This document shows, piece by piece, positions 1,994-57,712 of a stretch of 64,000 bases of DNA. Positions within the stretch are counted from its first letter, which is position 1, and each line of letters opens with the position of its first letter. The notes below the pieces were generated by a model. That model had not been told where the DNA came from and made no database searches. It saw nothing but the letters and a program-made list of their open reading frames with translations. Position numbers and translations under genes: made by a program. Origin of the DNA: a virus; IMG/VR virus record IMGVR_UViG_3300032315_000633, positions 3,677 through 67,676 of that record; one strand, 5' to 3'.

Positions 1994-3675
1994 GTTCATT
2001 AACAGGACGGACAATTGCGGATTCGTATAAGGAGCTGTTAAAAACATCTTCGACAACTGGGCTGTCCTCGTCGCCAGTAACGATTGAAGACGGAGACGCA
2101 ACAGTTTCAGCTCTTTCACTTTCTACTACTGGGGTTTATTCCTCCGGGGCTCTTCAAGTTTCTGGTCTTTCTTCTCTAAACAGCTTAAGTGTCTCAAGCA
2201 CGTCAGTCTTTTCGGGTTTAGCTACCTTTACGCAAGCTTCTATAGCTTCGGGGAGTATCGCAAATTCGGTCGTCATCAGCAAATCTCCAGTTATCACATT
2301 AGCGGGTGATTTGTCTGGGAGCGTTACACTGACTGACTTAGGCAGTGGGACTTTGACGGCAACCATATCTTCAAATTCTACTACTTTAGGAACAGATACT
2401 ACTGGGAACTACGTTGCCACTATTGCTGGCACCGCAAACGAAATCTCGGTTGCCGGGTCTGGATCAGAAACAGCAAACGTAACACTGTCGTTGCCAGCCA
2501 CGCTTTCTTTTGCCAGTAAGACCATTACGGACTTGGGTTCGGTAACTACCGCCCAGATTAATGGCGGAACGATTAACGGAACATCAATTGGTGCCACCAC
2601 TCCCTCTACCGCAATTTTCTCTACAGCGACTTTATCCGATCAAGGCCAATTAAGACTTCGTGAACTTACAGCTAACGGGTCTGATTACGTTGCTTTGCAA
2701 AGCCCAGCTTCCCTAGCTTCGAGCTATACTATTACGCTCCCTTCCGCAAACGGCGCAGCTGGTTATGCTTTAATCACGGACGGAGCTGGAAACCTCTCTT
2801 GGCAGAACCCATATGGTGGTGGAGCCACGAACACGATTGGTGCTGGGGATTCTTCTCTCTCAGTCGCCGACCCAGGCACTGGAACAATCACAGGCTCTAT
2901 CGATGGGGTCAATCGAATTGTAGTTAACTCTACTGGTGTTGCCATAACTGGCACACTATCGGTTAGCGGAGCAATCAGCGGAACGGCTTCCAGCGCAAAT
3001 ACGCTTTCGACGGGCAGAAACTTCTCGATCACTGGGGACGTCACTGCCTCAGCCGTTTCTTTCAACGGATCCGGAAATGTCGCCCTTGCTTCAACTTTAG
3101 CTAGCGGAGTCGTAAACGACGCAAACGTTGGAGCTTCCGCCGCAATCGCCTTTTCAAAACTTGCTAGTTTGACATCTGGGAATGTCTTGGTTGGAAATGC
3201 TTCAAATGTTCCAACTTCAGTTGCGATGTCTGGTGATGCCACCATATCCAATACTGGTGCCGTAACGATTGCAAACAACGCAATCACGAACGTAAAGGTT
3301 TCGTCATCCGCCGCAATTGGTTTCTCCAAGCTTGAAGCTCTCACTACTGGACAAATTGTGGCTGGTAATGCTGGGGTTGCGACTGCCACGACTCTTGGTG
3401 GTGATGCGACGATCGGTGCGACCGGGACTTTGACGATCGCCAACAACGCAATCACTACGTCAAAGATACTTGATGGTGCTGTTACTTACGCAAAAATTGA
3501 TCCAGCCGCGATCTCTTTGTTTAACCAGTTCTACGGATTTCGTTTGAGCGGTACCCATCTGATTATGGATTACGGATCTGGAACCTGGGTTAAGTCAGAC
3601 TATATTGACAGCATGTTTGCACCTTTTACAAACGTGTCGGTTAACGCTTTGGGCCATCTGGTCGGCACGTTTTAA
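1990..3675 (+). CDS. tail fibre protein
   Basis: Ser/Thr/Gly-rich; SYTITLPSANG..GYALITDGAGNLSW fibre motif; two ~55-aa SAAI.FSKL...TIANNAIT repeats. Confidence 0.8.
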   Translation: MSSLTGRTIADSYKELLKTSSTTGLSSSPVTIEDGDATVSALSLSTTGVYSSGALQVSGLSSLNSLSVSSTSVFSGLATFTQASIASGSIANSVVISKSPVITLAGDLSGSVTLTDLGSGTLTATISSNSTTLGTDTTGNYVATIAGTANEISVAGSGSETANVTLSLPATLSFASKTITDLGSVTTAQINGGTINGTSIGATTPSTAIFSTATLSDQGQLRLRELTANGSDYVALQSPASLASSYTITLPSANGAAGYALITDGAGNLSWQNPYGGGATNTIGAGDSSLSVADPGTGTITGSIDGVNRIVVNSTGVAITGTLSVSGAISGTASSANTLSTGRNFSITGDVTASAVSFNGSGNVALASTLASGVVNDANVGASAAIAFSKLASLTSGNVLVGNASNVPTSVAMSGDATISNTGAVTIANNAITNVKVSSSAAIGFSKLEALTTGQIVAGNAGVATATTLGGDATIGATGTLTIANNAITTSKILDGAVTYAKIDPAAISLFNQFYGFRLSGTHLIMDYGSGTWVKSDYIDSMFAPFTNVSVNALGHLVGTF

Positions 3676-3721
3676 GGACTTGACAACAATCTCATAAACA
3701 TTAACATTCGAGGAATCAAAT

Positions 3722-5872
3722 ATGGCAACTTTAGATCTCGGTAAAATCAAATTTGTTTGGCGGGGAGCTTATAGCGGTGCGACCGCTTATGAAACTGATG
3801 ACGTTGTGTCTTATCAAGGCTCTTCGTATATCTGTATCCTAAACTCTACTGGTAATCTACCAACTAATACGACCTACTGGAATCTTCTGGCTCAAGGCAG
3901 TGATCTTACAATCCTAAACACCCAAGGTCAAATTTTGTATCGCGGAGCTTCTGGGCTAGAAGTTCTTCCGCCAACCACTTCTGGCTTCATTCTCAGAACC
4001 AATGGAAGCGGAGCCAACCCTTCTTGGGCATCCGCTAGTTCAATTGTTGATCCTGCTTCCAGAATTGCCAAACTTAGGTATCCATCTTGCGGCTTCGGAG
4101 CTGGTGGCACAAACGGAACTCACGTCGTTTCACAAGACGGACGAGTGTACTATAGTGGAGCTGCGGTAAATTTAGCTGGTGTTGGATCAACTAGCGCAAC
4201 TACAACTGGTGACGTAAACGCAACATTTAACTCGGTTCCCGCAAGACAAGCTACGTTACCACGCGGTGCTAAAGCAGTATCGGTTTACGACTTTTTCGAT
4301 TCCTCTTTTGTTGTGGATGATAACGGTAGGCTTTATGCGGCTGGAGATAACACCACTGGTAAGTTAGGTCTCGGAATGGTGGCTAACGGAGCTACTAGTA
4401 CGTCGACTGCTGACGTAACGGCTCGTTCGAAATACTGCGAAGTAGTTTTCCCAACGCATAACTACCCTGCTTCTGGCTCGACAAATCGTCCAAAGATCGT
4501 GCAAGTATTCAGCTCATGCCAAGACAACACTGTGGCGAGTGGGGCTTGTTTTGCGATCGACTCTTTAGGTTTCCTTTGGGCTTGGGGTGCAAATACAGCT
4601 AACAGCGTTCTTGGAATTGGCACTGGTTTTGGGGCGTCGATTCACAATCCTGTTCGTATCCCAACGTTTATGGCTACTGGTTCAGTTGCCCTTAACTCTG
4701 GTATCAACCAGCCAGCTTCTTCTGGAACTCGTCGTAGGATTAAGAAAGTAACTGCGATTGGGCCTACTGCTGAATTCTTTGCCCTTGTGGAAGAGGCAGA
4801 TGTTAGCGTTGGTTCTGATTCTGGTGTTTGGTATTGGGGAACCAACTCTGGAGCTATGGCTCTTGGTAACAACACTACTTCTTATGTTTCAACTCCTACT
4901 CAGTTTTCTAGGGGTGCTCTTGGGCTTAATGCTGGCGAATACGTTGTAGACATAATCGCAAACGATTCTGGCTCAACTGGTGCCGCAGGAACCTTGACTG
5001 TTCTTACAAGCACTGGAAGAATGTTGACTGGTGGGACAAATAGTTCCGGTGTTCTCGGGCAAGGTGGCACCACTAACGTCTTCGGAAACTTTGTAGTCAT
5101 CCCCACAACGAATTTCGGAGCCAGCCTTACCTGGGCTATCCCAGCGACTTGGACAGTTCCAGCTGGAATGACGATCGCCGACTTCAATACGGAATGGACT
5201 CCGGCAACTTACCAAGCACAGTTCGATGCTGTTTTTGACAAAACCTGGGCTTTCCACGGAGCTATGCGGTATGGCAAAGTTTCTAACGGAACTTGGGGTT
5301 TCTGGGGCACGCAAATGACCACTGGTGTTGGCGCGGCTGGTGTTGGGGATTTAGTTGCGGCAAAGTATTCTCCAGTTGCTCTTTCATTTAGAGATTCCCA
5401 ACACGAAGACACCGCAGATTATAGGACAGCTTCAGACGCTTTCTCGTCATTCACTCTTACAACTGGTAACGTCACCCCTGGGTTTACTATCAAGCAGATC
5501 GAGGTTGGGGCATCTTCGGACGGCGTAAAATCAGCAACTATTGTTATTATGTCAAACGATCGTGTTTATGTTGCTGGGGATAACGCCGGTGGAACTGGTG
5601 GAGCTGGAGACTATTTTGTAAATACTGGATTCTTTAGGCGAGTCCGAATTGATTCCGCAATCTTGCAAGGAGGCCAGAAGACAATCGATGACGCTAGATA
5701 CATTGGTGGTCAAGGACTTCTCGCCGCTCGTTTACCAAGTTTTCAGATTCTTCTTAGCAGCGGTGAAGTCTACGCATGGGGTCAGTCTACTGTTGGAAGT
5801 AGCGGTCTCTCTGCTACCACACCCACCCCAGCCCGTGTCGCCTATGGGGCAGAAACGAGGAACGCAGCATGA
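3722..5872 (+). CDS. tail fibre / receptor-binding protein with RCC1-like repeats
   Basis: N-terminal DLGKIKFVWRGAY...YETDDVVSY.GSSYIC domain; repeated G.(V/L)(Y/W)AWG.N..G.LG blades. Confidence 0.8.
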   Translation: MATLDLGKIKFVWRGAYSGATAYETDDVVSYQGSSYICILNSTGNLPTNTTYWNLLAQGSDLTILNTQGQILYRGASGLEVLPPTTSGFILRTNGSGANPSWASASSIVDPASRIAKLRYPSCGFGAGGTNGTHVVSQDGRVYYSGAAVNLAGVGSTSATTTGDVNATFNSVPARQATLPRGAKAVSVYDFFDSSFVVDDNGRLYAAGDNTTGKLGLGMVANGATSTSTADVTARSKYCEVVFPTHNYPASGSTNRPKIVQVFSSCQDNTVASGACFAIDSLGFLWAWGANTANSVLGIGTGFGASIHNPVRIPTFMATGSVALNSGINQPASSGTRRRIKKVTAIGPTAEFFALVEEADVSVGSDSGVWYWGTNSGAMALGNNTTSYVSTPTQFSRGALGLNAGEYVVDIIANDSGSTGAAGTLTVLTSTGRMLTGGTNSSGVLGQGGTTNVFGNFVVIPTTNFGASLTWAIPATWTVPAGMTIADFNTEWTPATYQAQFDAVFDKTWAFHGAMRYGKVSNGTWGFWGTQMTTGVGAAGVGDLVAAKYSPVALSFRDSQHEDTADYRTASDAFSSFTLTTGNVTPGFTIKQIEVGASSDGVKSATIVIMSNDRVYVAGDNAGGTGGAGDYFVNTGFFRRVRIDSAILQGGQKTIDDARYIGGQGLLAARLPSFQILLSSGEVYAWGQSTVGSSGLSATTPTPARVAYGAETRNAA

Positions 5873-8582: not shown

Positions 8583-11500
8583 ATGGCTCAGACGATCTTC
8601 ACGCCTGGGGGCGACGCCTTACAAGTTTCACAGCCATCCCCCCAAACCGACAATCCGTTTGAGGATTTGATCCCGGCTGGGGCTCCTTTAGCCGATGATA
8701 TTGGTCTCGGGGAGATTTCCCTTGAGATGACCGATAAGGAAAAAGCCATCACCAATCCGTTCCTAGACATCCCAAAAGCCAATTTAAAAAACCCTCTCGA
8801 AACAGCCCAGGAAGCTTACCGAATTGGGCAAGAATCCGTTGGTATCGATTTCGACGCCTATTCCCTCCAGCGCAGAAACCTCCTAACTGGTCAAGCACCG
8901 ACCCAAGCCGAACTGGATGCGCTCGATGAAAAGGAGCGTCGTCTTAGCGTGGAATCTTACCGAAACCAGGGAGACAACATTGCCACAGGCACGGCTTACA
9001 AAGCAATTGAAATGCTACCACCTATGGTTTCTGGTACGGAAGAGGGTCTCCGAACTGGCGTCCAGTACGGAACCACGATGGCTTTGGCGGCGGGTACGGC
9101 AACATTGCCACTTGGCCCAGAAGTTGCGGCTCCTGCCGCGGCGGCCTTCGGGAAGGTTGGGTTAGCCGCCGGCAGTCTCAAGGGGAGCTACGATTATTGG
9201 AACAAGCAGGGAACTGGTGCGTCTTATCGGGAACTACTTAGGAACAATGTAGACCCTAATTTTGCGGCTCAGGTTTCTCAGGTTGTTGGTCCGGCCTATG
9301 CGGCCATTGAGTACGCACAGGTTAATAAGATCCTTAGTGTTGCCGGTGGACGGCAAGTCAAATCCGCTTTACTCCGTGGGGCTATGAAGGGGATTGCAAA
9401 ATTTATGCCCCAAGTCGCCAAGAGAGGTGTTGCGGCGACGGGCAAGGCCGTAACCGCTTTTGGCAAAACAGCCACAGGAAAGGCCACCGAGTTTGTTTTG
9501 GCTGAGAGTGCGGAGGAAGGTCTTCAGGAAGCCATTACCGCAACTGGAACTGTTATCGGTAAAGCCGAAGCAGAAGCCTTAAAAGAGGGCGCAACCGCAG
9601 AGGCTTTGGATGTCATCGGCCAGCTTGACCTTGGTGACGCTGGTGAGGTGCTTGGTCGTGGTCTAACCGCTTTCCGAGAAAGCATAGGGCCTCTCGCAGT
9701 TCTTGGCGGTTCCGCAAAGTTAACTGGAGCAGCGGCTCGCAAAACGGGCAAGGTGATCGAAAACATTGCTTCGGGTGAACTTGGCGAGCTTTCCGATATG
9801 CGCGCAAAGGTTGCGGCAGCCGGTGCCCCCAAGACCGCTGATGCCCTTGCTGGCATCGACCTAACGGCTCCTACGCTGAAGGCCGAAGACACTGTCGGGC
9901 TGGAGGAAGATCTCGAAGCCGCCGGGGTTCCGATAACCACCGTCGCACCAGCACCGACACCGGTTGCGGAAACCCCGAAACCTTTTGCCGGTCTTCCAGG
10001 CGACGAACTTGGGGCAAAGATTTTCTCGAGCATTCGTGCTCGCAAGCCAATTGCAAAAGCCGACATCGACAAAGTTGGCGGGTTTATGCTATCCTCAAGC
10101 TGGAAGCTCAACGAGGAGACTGGCAACTACGAATATCAAGGACCAACCGATGAAACAAAAGAAACTCCGCAAATTCCAATCGCAGAAGCAGAAGCCACCG
10201 CAGCCAAAAAGCCAGAAGCAAAAGCCGCAGAAGCAGAAGCCGTCGCTCCTGTCGAAGCCGTTAAGCCAAAGCCTGCTGAAAAAGGTGTTGCGCCAGTCGT
10301 ACCTCCACTAGAACAACCCGAAACCAGACCCAACATTCTGGCTCGGAACTGGCTTGCCGAGGTTGACCGAGCCAAGAACAAGCGGGAACAGCAGGATCTG
10401 ATCTCCATCTTCCGTGGGAAGATCGATTCGCTTTCGGAGGATGAACGGCAGGCCTCCAAGATTTTTGACTCCGAATTGATCAAGCGTGCGGAAGCCCCGA
10501 AGGTTGAGGCAACTCAGCCAGCAGCACCAGTTGCACCAGAACGAAAAATTGAATCTTCCGAAACAACTCCAGATGTTCAGTATGTTCGTAATCCAAATGC
10601 TACTAGACATAGGACTGATCCACTTAACAAGAATCAACCGGTTATGGTAAGGGTGCTAGGACTTCAAGAAAAAAGAGCTTTAGCCGCCTACGAAAAGTAC
10701 CTTAACAAACAACCATTAAGCGGTGTAGATGTACAAGCCTTAGTTTCGTGGGCAGAAAAAGAGGGAATACAAATTCCGTTTACCCAAGACCCAAGCACGG
10801 CAGATCAAACCTCCTCAGATCCGTCGTGGATTTTAGATCCAGAAACAGATACTTGGAGTAATAAAACTGAAAAACAAACCAATAAAAAACTAATAATTTA
10901 CACACCAGATTTTTCAAAACCTGGAGATAAAACGGCAGATACTGGCGCACGAAGATACGATCTGTTGCCAGAAAATGCACAGGCGCCGCAAGAAGGAGAT
11001 ACGACTTTTGGTAAACTTGGGTTGCAGGCAGAGGCACCAAAAGCCGAGGCCGCGCCACCCCTCCCCAAATGGGAAGACATCCTCAAGAACCAGAACCAAA
11101 TCAAATTCTTGAAGAAAGTCTTCAAAGACGCAAACGCAAGGCTACCGAAAGAGCAACAGCTTGTCCCGAAGAATGGCTGGAAGAAACAAGACTTTTTCAA
11201 GGCTCTCGAAACCATTTACGGACAGCTTACCCAACTTGAATTTGCCAAGCCCGAACTAAAGGCTCCCGCACCTGGAACGATTGCGCCTCAAGCTGTCGAC
11301 AAGACTGCTCAACAAAGGCAACGTCGGTTGGCAAGCTTGATGAAGGTTTTCTCCAACCCAAAACTAAACGGGGATCAAACTTACTTTCGTGACACGGCTC
11401 TTGAGATGGCTCGCAGAATCTCAAAGCAAGTTGCTGGTAGCTTCCCCAACCTCGCTTCCGCCGACACGGAAATCTACACAAGGTTAGTCGAGCGTATTGC

Positions 11501-14500
11501 TGGTCGTTTACTCTCGTCGGTCAATCTTGGCAGACCCATCTTGTTCAACGAGAAAGGCCAGCCTACCGATCTTACGGAAGAAGCCATTTCAAAGTTCCTA
11601 ACCTTCTCGGCTAGGAGGGCTGGGCAAGACGCAATCAATGTGCAAGCGGCCAGACGAGAGGTTGCCGCCCAGTTTGGTACGGCACCAGCCGAGGGAACGG
11701 TTACACAACCAGAGGCCGCCAGAGAAGAAGCCAAGCCAGCCGGGATGCAGATCGCCGAAGCTCCGGCCGCACCCGTGGTGGAGTCCAAAGCGGTTACGGC
11801 TCTCCGTGAGGCCGCCAAGCTGATCCGTGACCAGAGTGGTCCGGAGGTCAAACTGGTCATCGATTGGATCGTGGACACGATGATCGGTGCCGACACCGAA
11901 CTTGGCAGACTCACGACCTACAAGGATTTGGCCGACTATCTGTCCAAGGTTGCAAACCGCAAAGTCAGCGACAAGCGTGTCGGGGAATTCGTCAACAAGG
12001 TGGTCGAACAGATCGCCCAAAACCTCCGTGATGAAAACATCCAGGTCGATGTGCAGGCACTGGAGATGTTGCTCACTCCCGAGGGTCGTGCCGCCCGTGA
12101 GCGCAAGGCAACCGAGGAGGCGCAACGCCGCCAGGATCGTGAAGTTCGCCAAGCCATTGCAAATCTTGCCGATCGTGCCCGAAACCTAAAGGTTGGTTAC
12201 GGCGCACGGCAGGCTTTGGTCGACGCCATCGGCGTGGCCAACACATTAACAAGGGCAAGGATCACGTCCGAGATCATCGTTCCTCTGGAGGAAGGCTTGA
12301 TCGGAGAGAACGAGGTTGCCCAGAGACTCGACAACATTCAGAAAGGAATTGAAAATGCAAAGCCCAGAGTTAGACAAGCTGTTCCCCGGCGTGGCCGTGG
12401 AGCCGCTCAACAAGTTGAAGAAGGTCCGGTTCGTGGCCGAACTGGAGAAGGCGTCGAAGGAGAACGGAGGGGTGCCCGTGCTGGCGGAGTTGTTGAAGGA
12501 CAACCCGAGCCTACCGATGGAGGAATTGCTCCAGTCGGTGCACGAACTGGCGAAGCTGGACGAGAAGTGGGCGAAAAGCAGCCAGAAGCTCCGAGCCCTG
12601 TTTCCGTTGACCCCGGCTTAAGATCGAAGAATGCCCCGAGTGCCGTAAAGACATTGGTCAACACGGCAACTTCGTCGGGATTCCCGGCCAGCTATATCAT
12701 AGACCTAAACACCAGAAGCGCAGTTTCGGTCTCGATCGAGGATGCCGACAGTGATGCGGAAAATCCGGTCATCCGTGTCAATCCAAGGTTGCTCCAACAA
12801 ATCGAAAGAACCCTTGGTAAAAAAGCCTATTCCCAATATGCCTTCCTAGCCATTGCGGAGGAGATCGCACATTTCAAATATCTGAAGATGCTCAAAAGGG
12901 AGGCCAACGAATTGGGGATCAACTACCGCCAGCATCTGAAGAACGAGACAAAGCGTGTCGCCAAGATCATCAAAGGCCGCCGTGGTCTGAAGCAAAAGCT
13001 CGAAAAGTTGTACAACGACGGCAAGCCTTTCACTGGCAAAGATGGTGAAACCAAAATGGTCTTGGAGTTTATGCGGATGCTCACCCAGGAGAAGATGACG
13101 GGTGCCATCACAGAATCCACCTACCTTGATGTTGCGTCCATCCTTCGTTCGATGGAGCCCCAGGATAGGAGATTTGTATTCCGCTTCCTAGACGCCATCC
13201 GCCAGTTCCTTTACGGCTTGAGCGGGAGGACGGCGGCCGAGACTAAGTTCCTCCGAACCACCGCAGACTCGATCGCCCAAATGGCTCAGAGGGCTACCAG
13301 AGATCTGGCAAAGCCAAACGAGACTCTCCCAGTCTCTATGAACTATTTCCCAACGAAGACTGATTCCCTTACTGAAACGCAACCGGTAAAGGGTGAATTG
13401 CAGAAAGCTCGTGAAGAGCTTCGCAAGGACACTGGGCTTAACCGAGCCAACCTAAAGTTTCTCCAGGATTACGCCAAAGAACTTGGGATTAAAGTCCCGA
13501 CCACCAAGCGAAAGGTTGTCGTATTCAACGAGAAAACCCGTAAACACGAGGAGAAAGAGTTTAAGGTTCCGTTTTGGAAGAAAGCCGATTATGTGCAGGC
13601 CATCAAGGCCAAGCTGGAATCCCTCAAGAAAGAGCCGAAAAGGCCAAGCGACGAGGATCTTATAGGTGCGGCAGTGCCCACGGACAGGCCTTACTGGATG
13701 ACCAAGGAAGGTAAAGTGATCGATGTCGAGGAAACCGCCCTCGTCGATCTTATGTCTATCGGAAGCCACGCCGAGGCAGCCGTCGAATGGTTGCGGGAGA
13801 ACGAGCCGAAAGCCACCTTCTTGACCGAGTGGAGCCTGCTTGATCCTCTGGATCGCAAGGAACGCCAGCAGATGCCCGTGATGGAAATGTTCAAGCGTGG
13901 ATGGCTCCGAGTTGTCGGTGACGGGTTCAACCTTTATTTCGAGGGTAGCCCCAACCAGACACAGCTGGACAAGCTGTTCGAGTCGGCCATCAATGACGAG
14001 GTCAAGCTCATCCAGGATCTGAGCAGCCTGTCTGGCCGTGCCCGTTCCAAGACGCTTTATGAGCCCCCGCTTGAAGACGAAATTGGTGCGGCTATGCCGA
14101 GGCACGGGTTCTCCACGACCGAGCCGAAAGTCAGTCTGGATTGGGTCAGCCTTCCCGACAGCCTCGAAGGTCTGGAACAAATCGATGTTCTGCCTGGGAC
14201 TTTCGATGTCCGCGTGTATATGGACGAAACTGGCCTCAAGTATGTCGTAAAGCGTGGCCAGACCCAGGAGCAGTTCGAGAACGAGATTGCGGCGGAGAAT
14301 GTTTACCGAATCCTCAACTACCCCGTTCCGAAATCCAAGCTGATCACCCTCCCGAACGGAGAGACTGCCAAACTTTCGGAGTTCATCTATGGTCCGACCT
14401 TGGCCGAGTTTGTCCGCCAGCAAAGTGGAACCAACCCCGAGGTTGTGCAAAAGCTTTACGAGGAGATCGGTGACGGTCTGTTGATCGACGCATTCCTGTT

Positions 14501-17500
14501 CAACTACGATGTCCTCGGCGAAGGCCTCGACAACATCATAGTCGGGCACGACGAGCTTTTCGACCAGGATGTGTTCATCTCTGGTTCACCTTCCGTGGTC
14601 AAGTATACGGCGTATCGGATCGACAACGGGGGCACTCTCGACACCCGAGCCACCGGGCTTCGTCGGGAAGAGCCCTTCTTCTACGACTCTTTCACGAAGT
14701 TGCAGGAGAAGTACCCGATGTTCAACCTCAAGGCCTCGGATGTTCTGGCTCAGATCTCCGACCTTGTGCTCAACAGCGACCAGATCCTAAACTCCATTCC
14801 CGAAAGGTTGCGACCGATGATGGCTCAAAGGTTGCAGTGGATGGCCGACCAGTTGAGCGCAACCGACACGATGCCTCCGTCCATCGGGTACACGGACGAG
14901 GAGATCGTCAACCACTTCACCAAGCTTTCCCAGGAAATGGCGGCGGTCGAGGTCACCCGAAACGCCGAAGGCCAGCTGATCAACAAAAGGACAGGCCTTC
15001 CGTCCACGATCCAACTCCTCAACCAGCGTGGCGAGGTCATTCGAACTGAACCCAAGTCGGAGTTCAGATACCGCCTCGAGCGGACTCCTTCCTTCAAGAT
15101 GTGGTTCGGGGATTGGGAAAACTTCCCCGAAGGCAAGGGGACGAGCAAGATTCTGGATGCTTCGGGCGAGCCTCTCGTTATGTACCACGGAACCTCTTGG
15201 GACAAACGCCAGCTTTCCTACACATTTGTGCAAGACAGGCTTCGGGAGGACATCAACAATCGTTTCTACCCGATGCGGTCTTTCTCCACGGGCAACGCTT
15301 TCCGTGGTTTGTGGGTCGCCTCGAGCCGTCAGTTTGCCGAAGACTGGGCGAACGAATCGACCTTCGAGGAATACAACGAGCAGGTTGTCGTCCCGCTTTA
15401 CATCAAGGCGACCAATCCGTTTGACCCGAGGAACCCCGAGCATATCGCCAAGCTTATCGGATACGCCCGTGAGAAGAAGGGCGAGTTCACGCTAAATCCG
15501 TATCGCCAGCTTGCTTTGGAAAGCGGGTTCTTTGACTGGACGGTGTTCGAGGGAGTACCGGCTGGGAGCGCAACTCCCGCAACTGGTGCGGAATTTGACG
15601 GGCTTTCCGAGACAGAACGGAAGAGAAGGTTCTACTCGCTGTTCCCCTACACCACTCTGGAAGCCATCATCAACCTCGGGTTTGACGGGGTCTGGGTCAA
15701 GGAAAAGGAGCTAGGCTCCTCGGGGATGCTCGAAAGAAGGCCGAAGGATCGGATCGAGTCGATCATCGCCGCAAGGCAACTCAATGATGCCGCGGCGGAG
15801 CAACTGGAAACCGAGCGTCTCAAGCAGGATCTGGACGAATACGATAAAGGCTCGTCCTGGAACCTCCTTCTGTGGAGACCCGATGGTGCAAAGTCTGCGG
15901 TCAATAGTGGAAGGTTTAAGACGCAACAGCAGATCAACAATTTCAAGCCGACCAGCAACGCCGCGGCTAGGGCTGGTATGGTCAAGCGTAACGGCAAGAC
16001 GCTCTGGAACGAATATGTAAAAGACGGCGTGACCTATGTCAGCTACGAAGATCCCGAGAAGCTGGTCTCGTATGCCCATATGACCACCAACGAGCTTTCC
16101 AAGAAGAACATCGCCAAGGATGTCGTTTCCGATGGGGTTGTCTATGTAGGTGAAAGAATCGTTCCTGGGCCGAAGAGCTACAGCCGTCGTGAACCCGCCG
16201 ACCTTCTCGGAGCCGCAATGCCTCGCAGATTCGGGGTTCGTCTGAAGGACAAGGTCAGTGAAGAGGCCTACGCCAAGCTCAAGAACCTCAACTACGAGCC
16301 GATCCCAGACGCTATGACTGAGGCCGAGGCCGACAACTATTTGGCCAAGAACGGACTCCGTGGCTCGATGGATGCCGCCCTTTCCGACGCCAGCCCTCTC
16401 CAGCACGGTTCTCGTGAGCTTCTGGCTCAGAAGATCATCCTCGGGATGAACGAGCTCTATGCCAAGGACAAAGACCCAAGAATCCTCGACGACCTTCTGA
16501 TGTTTATCGACCGCTTCCTGGAGCAATCCTCGGGCATTGGCCGTGCGCTCCGAGCCCTCTCCTTCTGGAGCAATCTTACGCCAGAAGGTATGCTGATGCT
16601 CTACAAGAAGAAGTCAGACGAAACGAATCGTGAAGTCCGTGACAAGTTCAATGTCTTCTTCAACAAGGTCAAGAGCGAGCTTTCGGTTCTGCCCGAAGGC
16701 ACGATCGACGAAGTCTTGAAGAAGATGTCTGGTGTTCTGGCGAAGGCCGAAACCGCCGCCGAGGAATCCAGAAAGCGTATTGCCGAGAGCAATGCGATGG
16801 GGTTCTGGGAAGCCTTCTCCAACCAGATGGGCGAGAGCATTGCCGACAAGGCTTCCCAACAGCTGACCGAAGCCGAGGCGGAAGCCGCCCAAGCCGCCGG
16901 GGTTCCGTTGGAAGAGATGACTGCGGAACAACGCAAGGCCGTCAAGAAACTGGAGAACGCCAAAAGCATCAACCAAGCCGCCCAGGAAATGAGCCGTGAG
17001 ATCAAGCGGATGTTTATGGCTCTGGCCGAGGAGCAGGGTCGTCGCATCCGTGACCCACGAATCAACACGAACGAAGAGTTCGCCAATATGACAGTCGACG
17101 AGCAGGAGAAACTGCTCAAGGAAGAACGGGAGGCCAAACAGCGCAAGAACTTCACGGCGATGCTTTCCCGCTGGCCGAAGGCTTTGCAGGCTTGGGAAAA
17201 GGCGAGCGATGCCATCCGTGCCCGTACCGCAACCAACCCGGAGCTAGCCGAAATGTTCAATGGGTTCCTAGGGCTGGTTCTCGAGTCCCCCTTCACAATG
17301 CCCCAACTCAAAAGGTTTATCTCGCTCCGTGGCGTAAAGCTCGAGGACTTGATCCGTCAGCACTACGAGGAAGGCAAGCTGGCCAACAACGCCTACTCCC
17401 TTGCCAGAGAGATCGTGCAGGAAGCTGGTCTCGGGGCTTGGGAGGAAGAGACTGGGGCAGATGTGGCGGACGAACTTGGCCTTGCAAAGTACAAGCGTGA

Positions 17501-19877
17501 AGAGGGTATGGCCAAGGAAGAACCTTCCGCCCGTGAAAAGATACCTTCGCTTTCCGAAAGGCTGACCAACGCCATTGCCCTCCAGATCCAGGAGATCGTG
17601 GCCAAGGAGAGCGAGAAGAAACTCAATCGTCTTATCCAGTCCTACGCCGACAAAAAGCTTGAGCCTTCGTTGCGTAGGTTTGCGAACCGAATTGTCCAGT
17701 ACCAAGCCCTTGGCCTTTTCAACAATGCCTACGCCTGGAACGAGTTCCAGAAACAAGAAGGGTTGGACAAGCTAAAGCCAGAGGTTGTCGAGAAGATTGC
17801 CAACATTATGGGCGAAGCCCAGAACCTCGTGGGTTACCGCAAGGACGAAAAGATTGGCGATGCCCTTTCGCTGATTGCCTTTGAAACCCAGATCGACGCC
17901 TACAACTTTGCGAAATCCTGGTGGTACTTTTCAATCCTTTCGGGTATCGGAACCCAGTTTGCAAACTTCTTGGGCAACGCCACCAACACGGCACTCTTGG
18001 CCATCCCGACGATTTCGAAGCACCTCATCAAGGGTTACGCCACGGATCGCACAAGAAGCAAGGCCATCGTTGGATCTATGCTTCGGGCACTTTCACTTTC
18101 CTTTATGGACGCTGGCAATGTCCTAATGACTGGCCGTGTCGGAACTAGGAAAACCGAGCCTAAGTTCTTTGGCAAGGCGGCAACGGATTTCTTCGAAGTA
18201 GTGGCAAGAAACGCAACACAGGACAATGTGAAGCAAAAGGTTGGGAAGATATCTGCCACAGTTGCCTCCCTTCTGCGGAGGACAATGACCGCAGTCGATA
18301 TGGTTTTCTACAACTTTAACAAGGAAGTCTATTTGTTCGAGGCGGCCTACCAGAAGGCGGAGCAAGCTGGCCTCAAGGGAGAGGCGGCCACAGCCAAAGC
18401 CTTGGAGTACACTTTCAGAAATTCCGAACACTTGGTTGCGGCTCAGTCCCAAGCCGAGGCGCAAGGGTATGTTGTCGACTCTGACAACTCGGCCACAAGA
18501 TTCCTCCAACAAGCCGAGCAGGCCATCCGTGTGCAGGAGATCATCGACGAAAAGGCACAAGCGGAAAACCCGGAGGTTGCCGCCACCGGGCAGATTTACG
18601 GAACCGAGCTCACCTACAACGAGGAACCTCGTGGAGTTCTCGGAGCCTTCCATCGGATGATCGGGTCGTTTGCCAAGGAGCATCCCCTCAAATCGGCCAT
18701 CTTTGTGCCGTTCACCAGGATCGTTGCCAATGTCTGGAACCAGAGCATCGACTTCACGGGTTGGGGAGTGATGCGTGCCCGTGGTCTCCCGAAGGTTCTT
18801 GGGAAGAACTTGGCCGGGAAGTTTGCAATGGAGTACCAGGGAACTGCGGAAGAGCAGAAGATCCAGAGGGATCTGGCGTATGTCCGAGGAATCACGGGTC
18901 TGAGCACGGTGTTTATGCTCGGCTTGCTCGACCAGATCCTTTGCGGGAACTACGAAAAGTACGGGATTGAGCTTTGTGTCAACGGGCAGGGTCCGAAAGA
19001 AGCCGCCCAGAAAGAGCTGCTCAAGAATCGTTTGGGTTGGAAACCCAACTCAATCTATCTCCGTATGGCTCATGTGCCGGTATTGAAGGACGGGGTTTAC
19101 GCCAGCTATATGTTTTCGCCTCTGGCTATGGGCTTGTCGGCTGTCGGATTGTTCAACGACAACGAGACTTACGACTACTTCAATGAAAAGGAACCTGCGG
19201 ATGTGGCCTTGGCAATGGCTCACCGAGTTGCCACGATTATGTTTGATATGAACTTCCTCTCTGGGGCCAGCGACTTGTTTGAGATGTTGAACCCCAGCGA
19301 ACCAGAACGGGCTTTATCCAAAGCCAAGTCATTCCTATCGAGACTTGGGTCGGCGATGGTTGTGCCAAACTTTGTTCGGGATCTCGATCAGCTTCTGATT
19401 TCCCCGACGCTGGGCTATGGCCGTACTGCCAGGGAAGGTCCGATCCAAGGTGCTTTTGTTGCCAACACTCCGATTGTTAGGCAGATCTACGGCCAGACGG
19501 AATTGGATATGCTTGGACAGCCAGTGCAGATGCAGTTTCGACCCATCAGTTTCGCAAAGAAGGACGCCTTGCTTCAGGTTCTAGTCCAGAAGAACGCATT
19601 ACCAACGGCTCCCAAGAAGGATCGTTTGTTAGGGGTGGTCAAGATGACCGACGAACAATACGCCGACTTCCGCAAAGCTAGGGCGGAACAACTGGGTGAA
19701 GACCTAGGACGTGAGGGAACTATCGAGAGGCTTGAAGTTATGACCCCAGAGATGGCTCAACTTTATGTTGGCAAGCTTGCCCAGAAAGCGAATGCCATCG
19801 GGAAGGCCAAGATCATCCGAGACAACCAGGAACTATTGCAAGAGGTTAGGCAAGAGAAGACCAAAGGTCTCCGATAA
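8583..19877 (+). CDS. giant polyvalent internal virion protein (3764 aa) with sigma-like, peptidase-like, kinase-like and ART-like modules
   Basis: EEGLQE N-terminal motif; EEIAH; VVK...E...D..DN...IDNGG kinase motifs; FKMWFGDW...EPLVMYHGT...YIKATNPFD...GFDGV ART motifs; helical ejection-type C-terminus. Confidence 0.8.
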   Translation: MAQTIFTPGGDALQVSQPSPQTDNPFEDLIPAGAPLADDIGLGEISLEMTDKEKAITNPFLDIPKANLKNPLETAQEAYRIGQESVGIDFDAYSLQRRNLLTGQAPTQAELDALDEKERRLSVESYRNQGDNIATGTAYKAIEMLPPMVSGTEEGLRTGVQYGTTMALAAGTATLPLGPEVAAPAAAAFGKVGLAAGSLKGSYDYWNKQGTGASYRELLRNNVDPNFAAQVSQVVGPAYAAIEYAQVNKILSVAGGRQVKSALLRGAMKGIAKFMPQVAKRGVAATGKAVTAFGKTATGKATEFVLAESAEEGLQEAITATGTVIGKAEAEALKEGATAEALDVIGQLDLGDAGEVLGRGLTAFRESIGPLAVLGGSAKLTGAAARKTGKVIENIASGELGELSDMRAKVAAAGAPKTADALAGIDLTAPTLKAEDTVGLEEDLEAAGVPITTVAPAPTPVAETPKPFAGLPGDELGAKIFSSIRARKPIAKADIDKVGGFMLSSSWKLNEETGNYEYQGPTDETKETPQIPIAEAEATAAKKPEAKAAEAEAVAPVEAVKPKPAEKGVAPVVPPLEQPETRPNILARNWLAEVDRAKNKREQQDLISIFRGKIDSLSEDERQASKIFDSELIKRAEAPKVEATQPAAPVAPERKIESSETTPDVQYVRNPNATRHRTDPLNKNQPVMVRVLGLQEKRALAAYEKYLNKQPLSGVDVQALVSWAEKEGIQIPFTQDPSTADQTSSDPSWILDPETDTWSNKTEKQTNKKLIIYTPDFSKPGDKTADTGARRYDLLPENAQAPQEGDTTFGKLGLQAEAPKAEAAPPLPKWEDILKNQNQIKFLKKVFKDANARLPKEQQLVPKNGWKKQDFFKALETIYGQLTQLEFAKPELKAPAPGTIAPQAVDKTAQQRQRRLASLMKVFSNPKLNGDQTYFRDTALEMARRISKQVAGSFPNLASADTEIYTRLVERIAGRLLSSVNLGRPILFNEKGQPTDLTEEAISKFLTFSARRAGQDAINVQAARREVAAQFGTAPAEGTVTQPEAAREEAKPAGMQIAEAPAAPVVESKAVTALREAAKLIRDQSGPEVKLVIDWIVDTMIGADTELGRLTTYKDLADYLSKVANRKVSDKRVGEFVNKVVEQIAQNLRDENIQVDVQALEMLLTPEGRAARERKATEEAQRRQDREVRQAIANLADRARNLKVGYGARQALVDAIGVANTLTRARITSEIIVPLEEGLIGENEVAQRLDNIQKGIENAKPRVRQAVPRRGRGAAQQVEEGPVRGRTGEGVEGERRGARAGGVVEGQPEPTDGGIAPVGARTGEAGREVGEKQPEAPSPVSVDPGLRSKNAPSAVKTLVNTATSSGFPASYIIDLNTRSAVSVSIEDADSDAENPVIRVNPRLLQQIERTLGKKAYSQYAFLAIAEEIAHFKYLKMLKREANELGINYRQHLKNETKRVAKIIKGRRGLKQKLEKLYNDGKPFTGKDGETKMVLEFMRMLTQEKMTGAITESTYLDVASILRSMEPQDRRFVFRFLDAIRQFLYGLSGRTAAETKFLRTTADSIAQMAQRATRDLAKPNETLPVSMNYFPTKTDSLTETQPVKGELQKAREELRKDTGLNRANLKFLQDYAKELGIKVPTTKRKVVVFNEKTRKHEEKEFKVPFWKKADYVQAIKAKLESLKKEPKRPSDEDLIGAAVPTDRPYWMTKEGKVIDVEETALVDLMSIGSHAEAAVEWLRENEPKATFLTEWSLLDPLDRKERQQMPVMEMFKRGWLRVVGDGFNLYFEGSPNQTQLDKLFESAINDEVKLIQDLSSLSGRARSKTLYEPPLEDEIGAAMPRHGFSTTEPKVSLDWVSLPDSLEGLEQIDVLPGTFDVRVYMDETGLKYVVKRGQTQEQFENEIAAENVYRILNYPVPKSKLITLPNGETAKLSEFIYGPTLAEFVRQQSGTNPEVVQKLYEEIGDGLLIDAFLFNYDVLGEGLDNIIVGHDELFDQDVFISGSPSVVKYTAYRIDNGGTLDTRATGLRREEPFFYDSFTKLQEKYPMFNLKASDVLAQISDLVLNSDQILNSIPERLRPMMAQRLQWMADQLSATDTMPPSIGYTDEEIVNHFTKLSQEMAAVEVTRNAEGQLINKRTGLPSTIQLLNQRGEVIRTEPKSEFRYRLERTPSFKMWFGDWENFPEGKGTSKILDASGEPLVMYHGTSWDKRQLSYTFVQDRLREDINNRFYPMRSFSTGNAFRGLWVASSRQFAEDWANESTFEEYNEQVVVPLYIKATNPFDPRNPEHIAKLIGYAREKKGEFTLNPYRQLALESGFFDWTVFEGVPAGSATPATGAEFDGLSETERKRRFYSLFPYTTLEAIINLGFDGVWVKEKELGSSGMLERRPKDRIESIIAARQLNDAAAEQLETERLKQDLDEYDKGSSWNLLLWRPDGAKSAVNSGRFKTQQQINNFKPTSNAAARAGMVKRNGKTLWNEYVKDGVTYVSYEDPEKLVSYAHMTTNELSKKNIAKDVVSDGVVYVGERIVPGPKSYSRREPADLLGAAMPRRFGVRLKDKVSEEAYAKLKNLNYEPIPDAMTEAEADNYLAKNGLRGSMDAALSDASPLQHGSRELLAQKIILGMNELYAKDKDPRILDDLLMFIDRFLEQSSGIGRALRALSFWSNLTPEGMLMLYKKKSDETNREVRDKFNVFFNKVKSELSVLPEGTIDEVLKKMSGVLAKAETAAEESRKRIAESNAMGFWEAFSNQMGESIADKASQQLTEAEAEAAQAAGVPLEEMTAEQRKAVKKLENAKSINQAAQEMSREIKRMFMALAEEQGRRIRDPRINTNEEFANMTVDEQEKLLKEEREAKQRKNFTAMLSRWPKALQAWEKASDAIRARTATNPELAEMFNGFLGLVLESPFTMPQLKRFISLRGVKLEDLIRQHYEEGKLANNAYSLAREIVQEAGLGAWEEETGADVADELGLAKYKREEGMAKEEPSAREKIPSLSERLTNAIALQIQEIVAKESEKKLNRLIQSYADKKLEPSLRRFANRIVQYQALGLFNNAYAWNEFQKQEGLDKLKPEVVEKIANIMGEAQNLVGYRKDEKIGDALSLIAFETQIDAYNFAKSWWYFSILSGIGTQFANFLGNATNTALLAIPTISKHLIKGYATDRTRSKAIVGSMLRALSLSFMDAGNVLMTGRVGTRKTEPKFFGKAATDFFEVVARNATQDNVKQKVGKISATVASLLRRTMTAVDMVFYNFNKEVYLFEAAYQKAEQAGLKGEAATAKALEYTFRNSEHLVAAQSQAEAQGYVVDSDNSATRFLQQAEQAIRVQEIIDEKAQAENPEVAATGQIYGTELTYNEEPRGVLGAFHRMIGSFAKEHPLKSAIFVPFTRIVANVWNQSIDFTGWGVMRARGLPKVLGKNLAGKFAMEYQGTAEEQKIQRDLAYVRGITGLSTVFMLGLLDQILCGNYEKYGIELCVNGQGPKEAAQKELLKNRLGWKPNSIYLRMAHVPVLKDGVYASYMFSPLAMGLSAVGLFNDNETYDYFNEKEPADVALAMAHRVATIMFDMNFLSGASDLFEMLNPSEPERALSKAKSFLSRLGSAMVVPNFVRDLDQLLISPTLGYGRTAREGPIQGAFVANTPIVRQIYGQTELDMLGQPVQMQFRPISFAKKDALLQVLVQKNALPTAPKKDRLLGVVKMTDEQYADFRKARAEQLGEDLGREGTIERLEVMTPEMAQLYVGKLAQKANAIGKAKIIRDNQELLQEVRQEKTKGLR

Positions 19878-45878: not shown

Positions 45879-47183
45879 ATGCCTGTTTATTACCCAGAAA
45901 ACAACTATCCCTTGCCAGGTGACGAAGAATCAAGATCCTTACATAAGATAAATAGCCTACTCTATAATGGGATTAGTCTTTCGGCCACTAATAGCGGAAT
46001 CCCAACCGACGCTTTTGGGAGGCTTCGGGCTGGACTTCCGTTTACCCTTTTCGAATCAAGCCACCGCTACCAAGACAATGCGTTGTGGAATACCTCTACC
46101 GCTACGGGTGGTTCGACGAGCTTCAACGCAAACCAAGGCTTAGTCGACCTCGCCGTTTCGTCATCCTCCGGATCAAAAGTCCTTCGTGAAACAACCAAAG
46201 TCTTCTCCTACCAACCTGGGAAATCCCTTTTAGTTCTCAACACTTTTGTCCTTGCCCCAGCAAAAACCAATTTGCGACAACGTGTAGGTTACTTTGGCAC
46301 AGACAACGGAATCTTTTTGGAACTAAATGGGACAACCTTAAGTTTTGTCGAACGTAGTTTGGCCACAGGCACGACAACCACCGTCAACAAATCCGACTGG
46401 AATGGCGACAAACTCGACGGTCTTGGTGCTTCTGGTTTCACCCTCGACATCACAAAAGCCCAGATTATGTGGATGGATATCGAATGGCTTGGACTCGGGA
46501 CCGTAAGGGTTGGGTTTGTAATCAATGGTCAGTTTATTACTTGTCATTCTTTTCACCACGCCAATCTAATTACTTCTACTTACATCACTACAGCTAGTCT
46601 TCCTCTTCGCCTTGAGATTGAGAATACAGGGGCTACCTCAGGTTCAAGTACTATGAAACAGGTTTGCTCGACTGTTATCTCAGAGGGTGGATATCAACTA
46701 TACGGGGCTCAAAAGGCTGCAGGTACCGTTATTACAGTTCCATATAACATGTCCGTCGCTGGGACATATTACCCTATTGTGTCTATTCGCTTAAAATCTA
46801 CTCGGTTAGACGCCATCGTCATTCTTACTGCTCTTTCTGTTTTACCCGCTTCTACTGGGAACTATAATTGGAGAGTATTGGCTGGCACTACAACTGCTGG
46901 TGGTTCTTGGACAGACCCAGGATCTGACAGTGCTGTGGAATATAAAATAAACGGAACAGGTGTGTCTGGCGGGCGTATTCTCGCTAGCGGATTCATCAGC
47001 CAATCTAACCAGTCTAACCCGGCTCTCGATATCTTAAAGGAAGCCCTTTTCCGTTTCCAATTAGAGCGAGATACCTTTACTTCTACAGCCTATGAGATAA
47101 CTATCGCGGTTGCGGCTCAAACCATTGGCGGGGGTGGCTCAAACATATTTGGGTCGATGGATTGGGAAGAAATCAGCCGCTAA
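45879..47183 (+). CDS. virion structural protein (beta-sandwich, possible head decoration)
   Basis: DAFGRLR...PFTLF...YQPGKS...DIEWLG.G.VR.GF...DWEE family motifs. Confidence 0.6.
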   Translation: MPVYYPENNYPLPGDEESRSLHKINSLLYNGISLSATNSGIPTDAFGRLRAGLPFTLFESSHRYQDNALWNTSTATGGSTSFNANQGLVDLAVSSSSGSKVLRETTKVFSYQPGKSLLVLNTFVLAPAKTNLRQRVGYFGTDNGIFLELNGTTLSFVERSLATGTTTTVNKSDWNGDKLDGLGASGFTLDITKAQIMWMDIEWLGLGTVRVGFVINGQFITCHSFHHANLITSTYITTASLPLRLEIENTGATSGSSTMKQVCSTVISEGGYQLYGAQKAAGTVITVPYNMSVAGTYYPIVSIRLKSTRLDAIVILTALSVLPASTGNYNWRVLAGTTTAGGSWTDPGSDSAVEYKINGTGVSGGRILASGFISQSNQSNPALDILKEALFRFQLERDTFTSTAYEITIAVAAQTIGGGGSNIFGSMDWEEISR

Positions 47184-56356: not shown

Positions 56357-57025
56357 ATGCTTTTGGTCTTACCCACCAGCCATCTGGACGCACCAGCCGC
56401 GCAACGCTTGCTGGACTGGATCGAGGAGATCAAGACACCCACGGAGAAACATGAGCTTATCATTGCCGCATCCAAAAGGGTCGACACATCGGCCTTCAAA
56501 AGCCCGTTCACAAAAACAAGTTTCTTTGTCCCCCACGACGAGGATGAACGTGGCTGGCCTCAGAGCCCGAACCACCTTTTTAAAAGACTTTGCCAGCATA
56601 TTACTTGGGACATCAAACGCCCATTCCTCTGGTTTGAGGCAGATTGTGTCCCTATCGTCCCCTCCTGGATCGATCAGATTGAGGCTGAGTACAATTCGTG
56701 TGGTAAGCCCTTTATGGGCGCAAGAGTAGTAGCCGATAATGTTCCACTTCATATGAGTGGAAATGCAGTTTACCCAGCCGATGTTCTCCACCAAGCCCAA
56801 TATGTTTGCAAGTTGGATCGCATCGCTTGGGACGTTGCTTGCGCTGACGATATCGTCAACAACGCACACTGGACTGAACTCATCCAGCATATCTGGAGCC
56901 AAAAGCGTGATTTCGACTTCCCCGACAAAAAAAGCTTAACCGATATCCTCAAGCCTAAAACTGTTTTGTTCCATCAATGTAAAAATAGCTCATTTATTGA
57001 TCGATTGAGGGAACTTAAGGTGTGA
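56357..57025 (+). CDS. glycosyltransferase-like protein
   Basis: GT-A-like LWFEADCVP and HMSGNAVY; cluster context. Confidence 0.5.
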   Translation: MLLVLPTSHLDAPAAQRLLDWIEEIKTPTEKHELIIAASKRVDTSAFKSPFTKTSFFVPHDEDERGWPQSPNHLFKRLCQHITWDIKRPFLWFEADCVPIVPSWIDQIEAEYNSCGKPFMGARVVADNVPLHMSGNAVYPADVLHQAQYVCKLDRIAWDVACADDIVNNAHWTELIQHIWSQKRDFDFPDKKSLTDILKPKTVLFHQCKNSSFIDRLRELKV

Positions 57026-57684
57026 AAGTCTTTTCGTTTTTCTCCCAATCCCACAAACCAATATTCCTAGAGTTTTTCAAGCCTTCTTTTTTCAAAGCAG
57101 ACCCAAAGAATTTATTGTCATTAAATTTTGCCGAGTTGCCTCAAAGGACAGAAGCTGGCGAATATTTTTCTGAAGGGTGGTCTTACGCTATGCTCGATAA
57201 AGTTAGGCTGATCCTAAAAATCATAAGAAGTAATTTTGGTAGTTTTGTGGTTCTTTCTGACGCCGATGTCCAGTTTTTTGAAGGTTTTGCAGAGGACATT
57301 TTGAGCCATAGGCGAGATGGAGTTGATATTTTGTTCCAGGACGATGCCCCAAAACCAGAACATAAAAACCGCATGTGCACAGGATTTGTCTTGGTTAAGT
57401 GCAATTCGACATCGGAAGGCTTTTACGAAAAAATTCTGGATCTTCTACCGAAGTACCAGGATGAACAACTTGCGGCAAACACCATAGCCGATACGATTTC
57501 CTTCGATTTCCTCCCAAACGAAAAGTATTATACAATTTCGTCAGCGACCAACAACCAAATCTGGGAAGGGCAAGAGGATCTTGAAATACCTAAAAGCATA
57601 CTTATGCATCACGCCAATTGGGTTAAAGGTATCGGGAATAAAGTTAAACTTTTAAATTTTGTCAAAAAGAAGATGTTGGCCTAA
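57022..57684 (+). CDS. nucleotide-diphospho-sugar transferase
   Basis: SDADV DxD, FQDD, CTGF, DEQ and HHANW motifs. Confidence 0.8.
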   Translation: MKVFSFFSQSHKPIFLEFFKPSFFKADPKNLLSLNFAELPQRTEAGEYFSEGWSYAMLDKVRLILKIIRSNFGSFVVLSDADVQFFEGFAEDILSHRRDGVDILFQDDAPKPEHKNRMCTGFVLVKCNSTSEGFYEKILDLLPKYQDEQLAANTIADTISFDFLPNEKYYTISSATNNQIWEGQEDLEIPKSILMHHANWVKGIGNKVKLLNFVKKKMLA

Positions 57685-57712
57685 ACAAACCTATCGACTA
57701 CACTCGCAACTT

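Follow-up and report, generated by a model that had tools for sequence, protein, structure and literature searches.

A repeated motif at module borders in a giant phage protein

Why should a giant phage protein carry the same short peptide at each of several borders between its modules? The question is raised by a 64,000-nucleotide (nt) stretch of viral DNA, positions 3,677 to 67,676 of the IMG/VR record IMGVR_UViG_3300032315_000633 (hereafter, the window), in which a single open reading frame (ORF) at 8583..19877 on the plus strand encodes a polyvalent-type protein of 3764 amino acids (aa), P0001, that is presumably carried in the virion. A preliminary description of this DNA had noticed three copies of a linker of the form acidic-(I/L)GAA(M/V)P in this protein, and had offered two explanations: protease cleavage sites that release effectors from a polyprotein, or insertion joints for effector cassettes. 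Our analysis inclines towards the first, with a rough probability of 0.45; the motif would be a proteolytic processing site at the module borders of a polyvalent protein that is presumably packaged in the virion.

The three copies lie where they had been placed, within P0001 and on the plus strand, as do all the window features given below, and each reads [IL]GAA[MV]P. Site 1, DEDLIGAAVP (13650..13679, residues 1690-1699, with the core LIGAAVP at 1693-1699), is also the joint for an extra module in some relatives; site 2, EDEIGAAMPR (14073..14102, residues 1831-1840), has a conserved lead-in comprising S1822, Y1826 and P1829; and site 3 is PADLLGAAMPR (16194..16226, residues 2538-2548). Their claimed positions bear out: site 1 precedes a unit of about 130 aa, site 2 a block consisting of a kinase-like and an ADP-ribosyltransferase (ART) domain, and site 3 the C-terminal region. 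The coding DNA differs between the copies, being ATAGGTGCGGCAGTGCCC, ATTGGTGCGGCTATGCCG and CTCGGAGCCGCAATGCCT respectively.

Chance is a poor explanation for this repetition. Given the composition of P0001, 0.0018 copies of [IL]GAA[MV]P are expected against the three observed, and among 20,000 shuffles of the protein 33 contained one copy and none contained two or more. Even a deliberately loose pattern has an expectation of 0.116 and a probability of 2.4e-4 of occurring at least three times. When this loose pattern was applied to all six frames of the 67,676-bp genome there were five matches, three of which were sites 1-3; the other two occurred in antisense stop-to-stop frames of 87 and 68 aa, opposite real genes. 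Since the remaining matches are confined to short antisense frames, the motif is private to P0001 within this phage, and in the same whole-genome scan it was not found in capsid, scaffold, portal or any other plausible ORF.

Nor does the motif simply accompany the domains that it borders. An exhaustive phmmer search with residues 1607-2639 matched 2,527 proteins at E<=0.001, most of them by way of their ART-PolyVal segment. We considered whether ART-PolyVal or kinase-like proteins in general carry the motif and rejected this: of the 146 further proteins listed (232,295 residues), P0032, itself a fragment of the P0001 family, was the only one with the strict motif, and the motif was not found in P0035, a protein of 3,416 aa with five kinase-like repeats.

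Conservation of the motif among relatives

A word-indexed family search gave 30 matches, comprising P0002 (an identical fragment of 2,665 aa, which was dropped) and 29 homologues, so that the family alignment has 30 rows including P0001. The homologues, mostly 3,480-4,280 aa long and many of them on contigs of 65-75 kb, share 41-71% identity with P0001 across residues 1600-2700 and about 36-72% along their full length. All 30 proteins keep a motif of the form hydrophobic-G/N-small-small-x(0-2)-P at the same three borders, and the downstream anchors of sites 1, 2 and 3 are present in all 30 rows. Because many rows are near-copies of one another, the number of distinct 20-residue contexts is a fairer measure, and these number 20 at site 1, 17 at site 2 and 15 at site 3. 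Absence of the motif from the domain borders of homologues, which the preliminary description had regarded as fatal to its proposal, was not seen in any row.

The variants found, LGTSLP, LGASMP, LNAAMP, LGVAMP, IGAPAMP, IGAAAVP, LGAGAVP and LGAAEVRP, show which part is constant: a hydrophobic residue, G or N and two small residues, followed by zero to two residues, next usually by a hydrophobic one, and finally by an invariant Pro. The consensus is [D/E/N]-hydrophobic-hydrophobic-G-A-A/S-x(0-2)-P. By column, G1695 and P1699 are found in 30 of 30 proteins at site 1; the same is true of A1837, P1839, R1840 and G1842 at site 2, and of D2540, L2542, G2543, P2547, R2548, F2550 and G2551 at site 3. 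The residues directly before sites 1 and 3 vary in both sequence and length. The linker is 'acidic', as first described, to the extent that D or E is common two or three positions before the Gly, but this is not universal, and YNIL, SGVI and TGVI also occur upstream.

Conservation at the protein level with differing codons, which had been claimed for the window copies, extends to the seven loci for which DNA was compared. The hydrophobic position before the Pro is encoded by ATG, GTG, TTG, TTA, CTT, CTC or ATC, and the codons for Gly, Ala and the hydrophobic residue show both synonymous and non-synonymous variation, with the residues staying inside the permitted classes. Differing codons between copies and loci mean that selection acts on the peptide, and within these alignments the motif is demonstrably under purifying selection at that level.

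An optional module at the first border

Large indels (>=40 residues) occur at two places only in the family, residues ~573-820 and site 1. The former is a second indel hot spot (window 10299-11042), at which most homologues lack 41-243 residues that the window protein has, and it is not flanked by the motif. At site 1, an insert of 276-600 aa is found exactly at the motif in 11 of the 30 family proteins (11 of the 29 homologues), with a copy of the motif on either side. Its carriers are P0004, P0008, P0009, P0011, P0015 and P0026-P0031, and one example is encoded at positions 15008-16774 of L011. The insert is always one homologous module, whose middle varies. It runs from ...ELGAAMP-MRFKTEY to ...IYNILGAA-LPTDRPYW, and its conserved ends are PMRFKTEY... 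and ...AITDxETAAMTEGH...YSLDKVKALG.

In proteins that lack the module, the upstream flank of the first motif copy runs directly into the flank that follows the second; compare KAKAARSEVIGAA-IPTDRPYW, without the module, and KAKSERTGVIGAS-PMRFKTEY ... NILGAA-VPTDRPSW, with it. As the flanks of the two copies fuse when the module is missing, the joint must fall inside the motif itself. In P0005 and P0006, two copies of the motif stand in tandem, 8 residues apart (TLGAALPGLLGASMPTDRPYW).

The module is scattered across the family. On a tree of P0001 residues 1700-2541 (30 rows, IQ-TREE quick, LG+G4) its presence requires nine changes, of which at least eight are forced by well-supported branches, against a mean of 9.1 when the labels are shuffled; P0025 and P0030 are near-identical and yet differ by the whole module. 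This distribution would reflect either a module gained and lost several times over or one exchanged by recombination among lineages, two histories that the tree does not separate. The module matched no Pfam family, the ESM Atlas returned only unnamed viral clusters (0.84-0.87), and free-standing relatives were not found among proteins of 323-1031 aa.

The idea that the linkers are insertion joints for effector cassettes, which was to be judged by whether homologues carry different domains between the same linkers, is thereby borne out in part. One site and one module behave in this way, and comparison of the homologues supports the reading of a module joint for that module; but the insert is always the same homologous module and never a different domain, and sites 2 and 3 are without any indel in 29 homologues. 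A processed polyprotein should carry its motif at every border, and in this family three borders are so marked in 30 of 30 proteins and a fourth in 11 of 30.

Proposed processing of the protein

In proposing that the motif is a processing site, we rely on its anatomy: a core of tiny residues following hydrophobic ones, an invariant but unstructured stretch between units, and duplication of the motif with each added unit. The evidence for disorder comes from an AlphaFold2 (AF2) model of residues 1330-1850 (521 residues, 25 rows), which has a mean predicted local distance difference test (pLDDT) score of 68.6. Its folded units score 70-88, and sites 1 and 2 fall in coil with pLDDT <50, corresponding to model residues 354-371 and 477-521 respectively, although the latter segment also forms the terminus of the model, a position that would reduce confidence in any case. 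Sites 1 and 2 are therefore predicted to lie in unstructured linkers, and between them they bracket a folded unit of ~134 aa.

We suggest that cutting would most likely occur within or beside the G-small-small core, and that the resulting pieces would be an N-terminal part, the optional module where present, the 130-aa module, the effector block of kinase-like and ART domains, and a C-terminal part. This might take place in the capsid or in the host after ejection. The cutter could be an HExxH-like domain upstream of site 1, which is the sole internal candidate, or, equally possibly, a protease of the host. A stronger form of this proposal is rather less probable than the processing site as such, and we put it forward tentatively: that the motif is a dedicated processing code, by which the ejected precursor of 3,764 aa would be divided at hydrophobic-G-A|A, giving four or five pieces that act independently, either by its own atypical zincin-like domain or by a host protease, and by which new effector modules could be added or dropped provided that they bring a copy of the code. 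If true, phage polyvalent proteins would have their first defined cleavage code, and the polyproteins of RNA viruses would have a counterpart in a DNA phage.

The internal candidate occupies 12597..13307 (residues ~1339-1575) and combines an alpha/beta part with a helical part; it is confidently folded (AF2 pLDDT 80-90). In the window its signature reads EEIAH (residues 1426-1430, nt 12858-12872), and the clade to which the window belongs has EEIAH, EEIVH, QEIIH or QELVH, the first His being E or Q in each case. A distant clade has the canonical HETVH and, 25 residues further on, an invariant NE, an arrangement that may be gluzincin-like (compare the NExxSD of thermolysin); the domain, which there lies ~230 residues upstream of site 1, has a model with a pLDDT of 82. 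Three residues, E1427, H1430 and E1455, do not vary in the family. Neither AF2 model had a fold match in the PDB at E<=0.001; among sub-threshold matches, the minigluzincin selecase ranked ninth for the distant-clade domain model (probability 0.47), and the best matches of that model in BFVD were polyvalent LPD/MuF-C proteins (probability up to 0.98, TMq 0.39). Set against the gluzincin pattern of HExxH with a downstream Glu on a zincin fold, the window protein departs at the first His (E-E-x-x-H), and the fold search was not significant. To judge from its residues, the domain may represent a peptidase that has lost its activity (a pseudo-peptidase) or an atypical metal site. A prediction of the complex between the domain (A2 residues 5-250) and a 36-residue peptide containing site 2 returned 'no answer' and counts neither way.

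Several observations weigh against proteolytic processing. The profiles MPTase-PolyVal (PF18818), Peptidase_S78, S77 and ClpP have no match in the genome at E<=1, and Pfam scans of 18 other ORFs revealed no peptidase. Neither the PDB nor BFVD yielded a structural match to the HExxH-like domain at E<=0.001, and the 521-residue model, which contains this domain with sites 1 and 2, does not place the motif segments confidently. The motifs are fully conserved where the first His is E or Q, which weakens self-cutting by this domain; equal conservation alongside a degenerate HExxH points to another protease, of the host or unrecognised, or else argues against cleavage. An internal papain-like or other cysteine protease was considered and rejected as unlikely, because P0001 has two cysteines only, both of them C-terminal and neither in a protease-like context. 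Finally, as far as the available text of the sources goes, N4 vRNAP, another giant ejected podovirus protein, is reported to be unprocessed (cited in PMC5512222), as are the virion proteins of phiRIO-1 (PMC4819975).

Two other cutters were considered. Prohead protease profiles (PF04586, PF03420, PF00574) had no matches at E<=1, a search that divergent proteases might escape; neither of the features expected of substrates of the assemblin or T4 gp21 type, a protease gene and the motif elsewhere in the genome, was found. Host signal peptidase was tentatively set aside: the site has a loose fit to A-x-A, but no hydrophobic segment precedes it. Of the cleavage sites originally proposed, then, the anatomy stands, since small residues, predicted coil and module borders all fit, but neither a protease gene nor a significant peptidase fold match was recognised in the searches above, and it is from the anatomy that we infer cutting.

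Alternative explanations for the motif

The strongest competitor retains function and dispenses with cleavage. The motif could be a linear element at the start of each module, a hinge or a docking peptide, in a protein that stays whole, to be read by the interior of the portal or capsid during packaging, by the ejection channel or by a chaperone. Conservation, disorder and position at borders fit this equally well, no protease was found by the genome profile searches or in the 18 scanned ORFs, and the precedents of unprocessed giant ejected proteins (within the accessible portions of PMC5512222 and PMC4819975) are as expected. It has no known partner, however, and a Gly with two tiny residues, followed by zero to two inserted residues before the Pro, offers little surface for binding and looks more like the subsite pattern of a protease. 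We regard this explanation as unlikely on balance, though it deserves to be taken seriously.

It is also possible to see the motif as an evolutionary joint and nothing more, that is, a short repeated adaptor produced by, or kept for, the recombination of modules and with no role in the finished protein. The history of site 1 lends itself to this: the indel joint falls inside the motif, the nine changes on the tree are not fewer than with shuffled labels, and the tandem copies in P0005 and P0006 resemble a deletion scar in which both copies were retained. The remainder of the evidence is difficult to reconcile with it. The DNA of the copies shares only short, imperfect matches and differs at synonymous sites; sites 2 and 3 are invariant at G/A, P and R and yet have no indel in 29 homologues; the other indel hot spot, at residues 573-820, does without the motif; and with overall identity down to about 36%, a functionless scar would have been eroded. 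We consider a purely evolutionary joint to be improbable.

A third explanation operates on the messenger rather than the protein. At each of the three sites in the window, GGTG or GGAG is followed after 5 nt by GTG or ATG, and so the sites might be internal ribosome-binding sites with start codons, from which C-terminal portions of P0001 are also made separately. Of 23 motif glycines in seven loci, 20 are encoded by GGT or GGA, which gives a Shine-Dalgarno-like GGTG or GGAG; the figure in genes overall is 53%, although the sites are related and hence not independent. At site 2 an ATG lies 5-8 nt downstream in seven of seven loci. Conversely, TTA, CTT, CTC, ATC or nothing stands in the position of the start codon at nine of 24 sites, and sites 1 and 3 each fail in four of seven loci. 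The G-to-N variant (LNAAMP, in five proteins) destroys the GG, and the invariant Pro, the changes of A to S, T, V or P and the conserved hydrophobic residue upstream are left unexplained. Internal initiation as the general purpose of the motif is thus very improbable; judging by its codons, site 2 may in addition serve to start translation internally.

Lastly, the form of the motif, short and with an invariant terminal Pro at each border, resembles Pro-terminated arrest peptides and could suggest a translational pause or 'stop-go'-like signal that slows the ribosome at borders for co-translational folding, but the spacing between the G-small-small core and the Pro is variable and known arrest motifs are not matched, so this can be given hardly any credence.

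The modules and their genomic setting

The alpha/beta module between sites 1 and 2 (13680..14072, ~130 aa) occupies model residues 375-484 with pLDDT of ~70-86. Its invariant residues include H1729, E1739, W1750, G1773, W1774 and D1780, and no Pfam match was found, so that its family is not detectable. The kinase-like domain following site 2 (14148..14870, residues ~1856-2096) has the invariant residues K1890, E1901, D1976, N1984, D2014 and G2016. It too is without a Pfam family; the Atlas gives weak leads (0.91-0.92) to PI3/PI4-kinase, LepB_N and actin-fragmin kinase, and relatives are fused to ADPrib_exo_Tox, Phage_Mu_F and InPase. The same domain recurs in many phage proteins beside various ART families, MuF and InPase, and five copies stand in tandem in P0035. 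From this pattern of occurrence it looks like an undescribed domain family of polyvalent proteins.

Next comes the ART-PolyVal ADP-ribosyltransferase-like domain (15156..15440, residues 2192-2286), which corresponds to the N-terminal half of the profile PF18760. Against a cut-off of 31.2 bits it scores 29.9 in the whole protein and 35.7 when the segment is searched, and a precomputed PF18760 annotation exists for 26 of the 30 proteins listed. The C-terminal region after site 3 (16227..19874, residues 2549-3764, ~1,200 residues) contains one strongly hydrophobic segment (3431-3454) and both cysteines of P0001. Residues ~3000-3700 are the sole part that P0001 has in common with other giant phage proteins (L017, L031 and H22, at 24-26% identity). 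Free-standing or split forms of residues 1695-2190 were not found among proteins of 30-271 aa. Against PDB sequences, the whole-family profile gave a best E of 0.51 and the single sequence gave nothing at E<=1.

The source is a single-contig virus record of 67,676 bp, estimated by CheckV to be 97% complete, which encodes tail fibre, lysozyme, terminase, DNA polymerase, helicase and methyltransferase. P0001 has tail-fibre genes on one side and a glucosaminidase/lysozyme gene on the other; its neighbours match a tail fibre family (phrog_9851), a baseplate hub/lysozyme family (phrog_1259) and Glucosaminidase (PF01832). From this position among tail and lysis genes we infer that P0001 is presumably packaged in the virion and delivered to the host. 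The whole protein matched no family in PHROGs, and tblastn against 50,697 phage records produced weak partial matches only and no cultured relative of P0001. Matches in L005-L009 (31-32% over about 100 residues) were discarded as spurious, their frames being full of stops.

P0001 is a new and poorly annotated member of the phage polyvalent proteins. It is encoded by a phage, being part of a 67.7-kb virus record with phage genes, and it combines at least two disparate domains of effector type, ART-PolyVal and the kinase-like domain, the assignment of the latter being weak. A zincin-like MPTase domain is frequent among polyvalent proteins without being required; in P0001 its possible counterpart is the HExxH-like domain, which has EEIAH in the window.

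A 434-aa protein (45879-47183, plus strand) is 65-69% identical to a 'virion structural protein' (phrog_1645) of the T4-like cyanomyophages S-RIM12, S-RIM8 and S-WAM2. Otherwise the phage has few isolated relatives, and this likeness could indicate gene exchange or hint at the host. In the late region, three adjacent genes (57022-59055, plus strand) contain Nucleotid_trans glycosyltransferase, FkbM-type methyltransferase and DUF6492 domains, and may form a cassette for modifying glycans of the virion or host surface. The tail-fibre protein at 3722-5872 (plus strand) combines RCC1-like beta-propeller repeats with a CBM_5_12-like N-terminus.

Comparison with known systems

The motif has an analogue in a viral polyprotein. 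In alphaviruses, nsP2 cuts the non-structural polyprotein at DIGA|ALVE and RAGA|GVVE, so that a hydrophobic-G-A|A core is an established cleavage site (PMC6106088, in the portion of the text accessible to us). By analogy, P0001 would likewise have a hydrophobic-G-A|A/G core at the borders between functional units. There is no homology between the two, however; nsP2 is a papain-like cysteine protease while P0001 has two cysteines, and in P0001 the cutting is our interpretation of the motif.

Within phages, the substrates of prohead proteases are reportedly packaged and ejected proteins cut at a short consensus, said to be L/I-x-E for T4 gp21 and A/S/G-x-E for phiKZ and SPN3US. The P0001 motif is different, and a prohead protease family was not found. 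A protein of comparable kind is gp47 of phi24B (2,811 aa), a very large polyvalent protein that has been detected in podovirus virions and for which ejection has been proposed; its domains, LPD1/5/38 and the metallopeptidase MuF-C, are unlike those of P0001 (bioRxiv 10.64898/2026.04.10.717836). We met neither a border motif nor processing of gp47 in the accessible part of that preprint.

The closest comparison is with the polyvalent proteins themselves, which are widespread in phages and plasmids and whose cutting into effectors has been predicted since 2017. As described in the available text of Iyer et al. 2017 (PMC5512222), these are giant phage polypeptides combining ART-PolyVal with other effector-type domains, and embedded peptidases are predicted to release their separate domains. 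P0001 resembles them in its composition, in its place among virion genes and in belonging to the kind of protein for which release by an embedded metallopeptidase was predicted there. It differs in that Pfam recognises ART-PolyVal only, with no match to MPTase-PolyVal, MuF or LPD. We found no defined border or cleavage motif for polyvalent proteins in the literature consulted; the available text of PMC5512222 names none (the word 'linker' occurs 0 times), although its architecture supplements might list the P0001 family. The borders of P0001, by contrast, carry a defined motif, and the family provides three or four invariant candidates whose positions are known exactly, which turn the old prediction into one that is site-specific and testable. 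Its natural variants also show an in-frame spot at which a module can be inserted or removed while leaving the rest of a giant ejected protein undisturbed, and so inform our view of how such proteins evolve.

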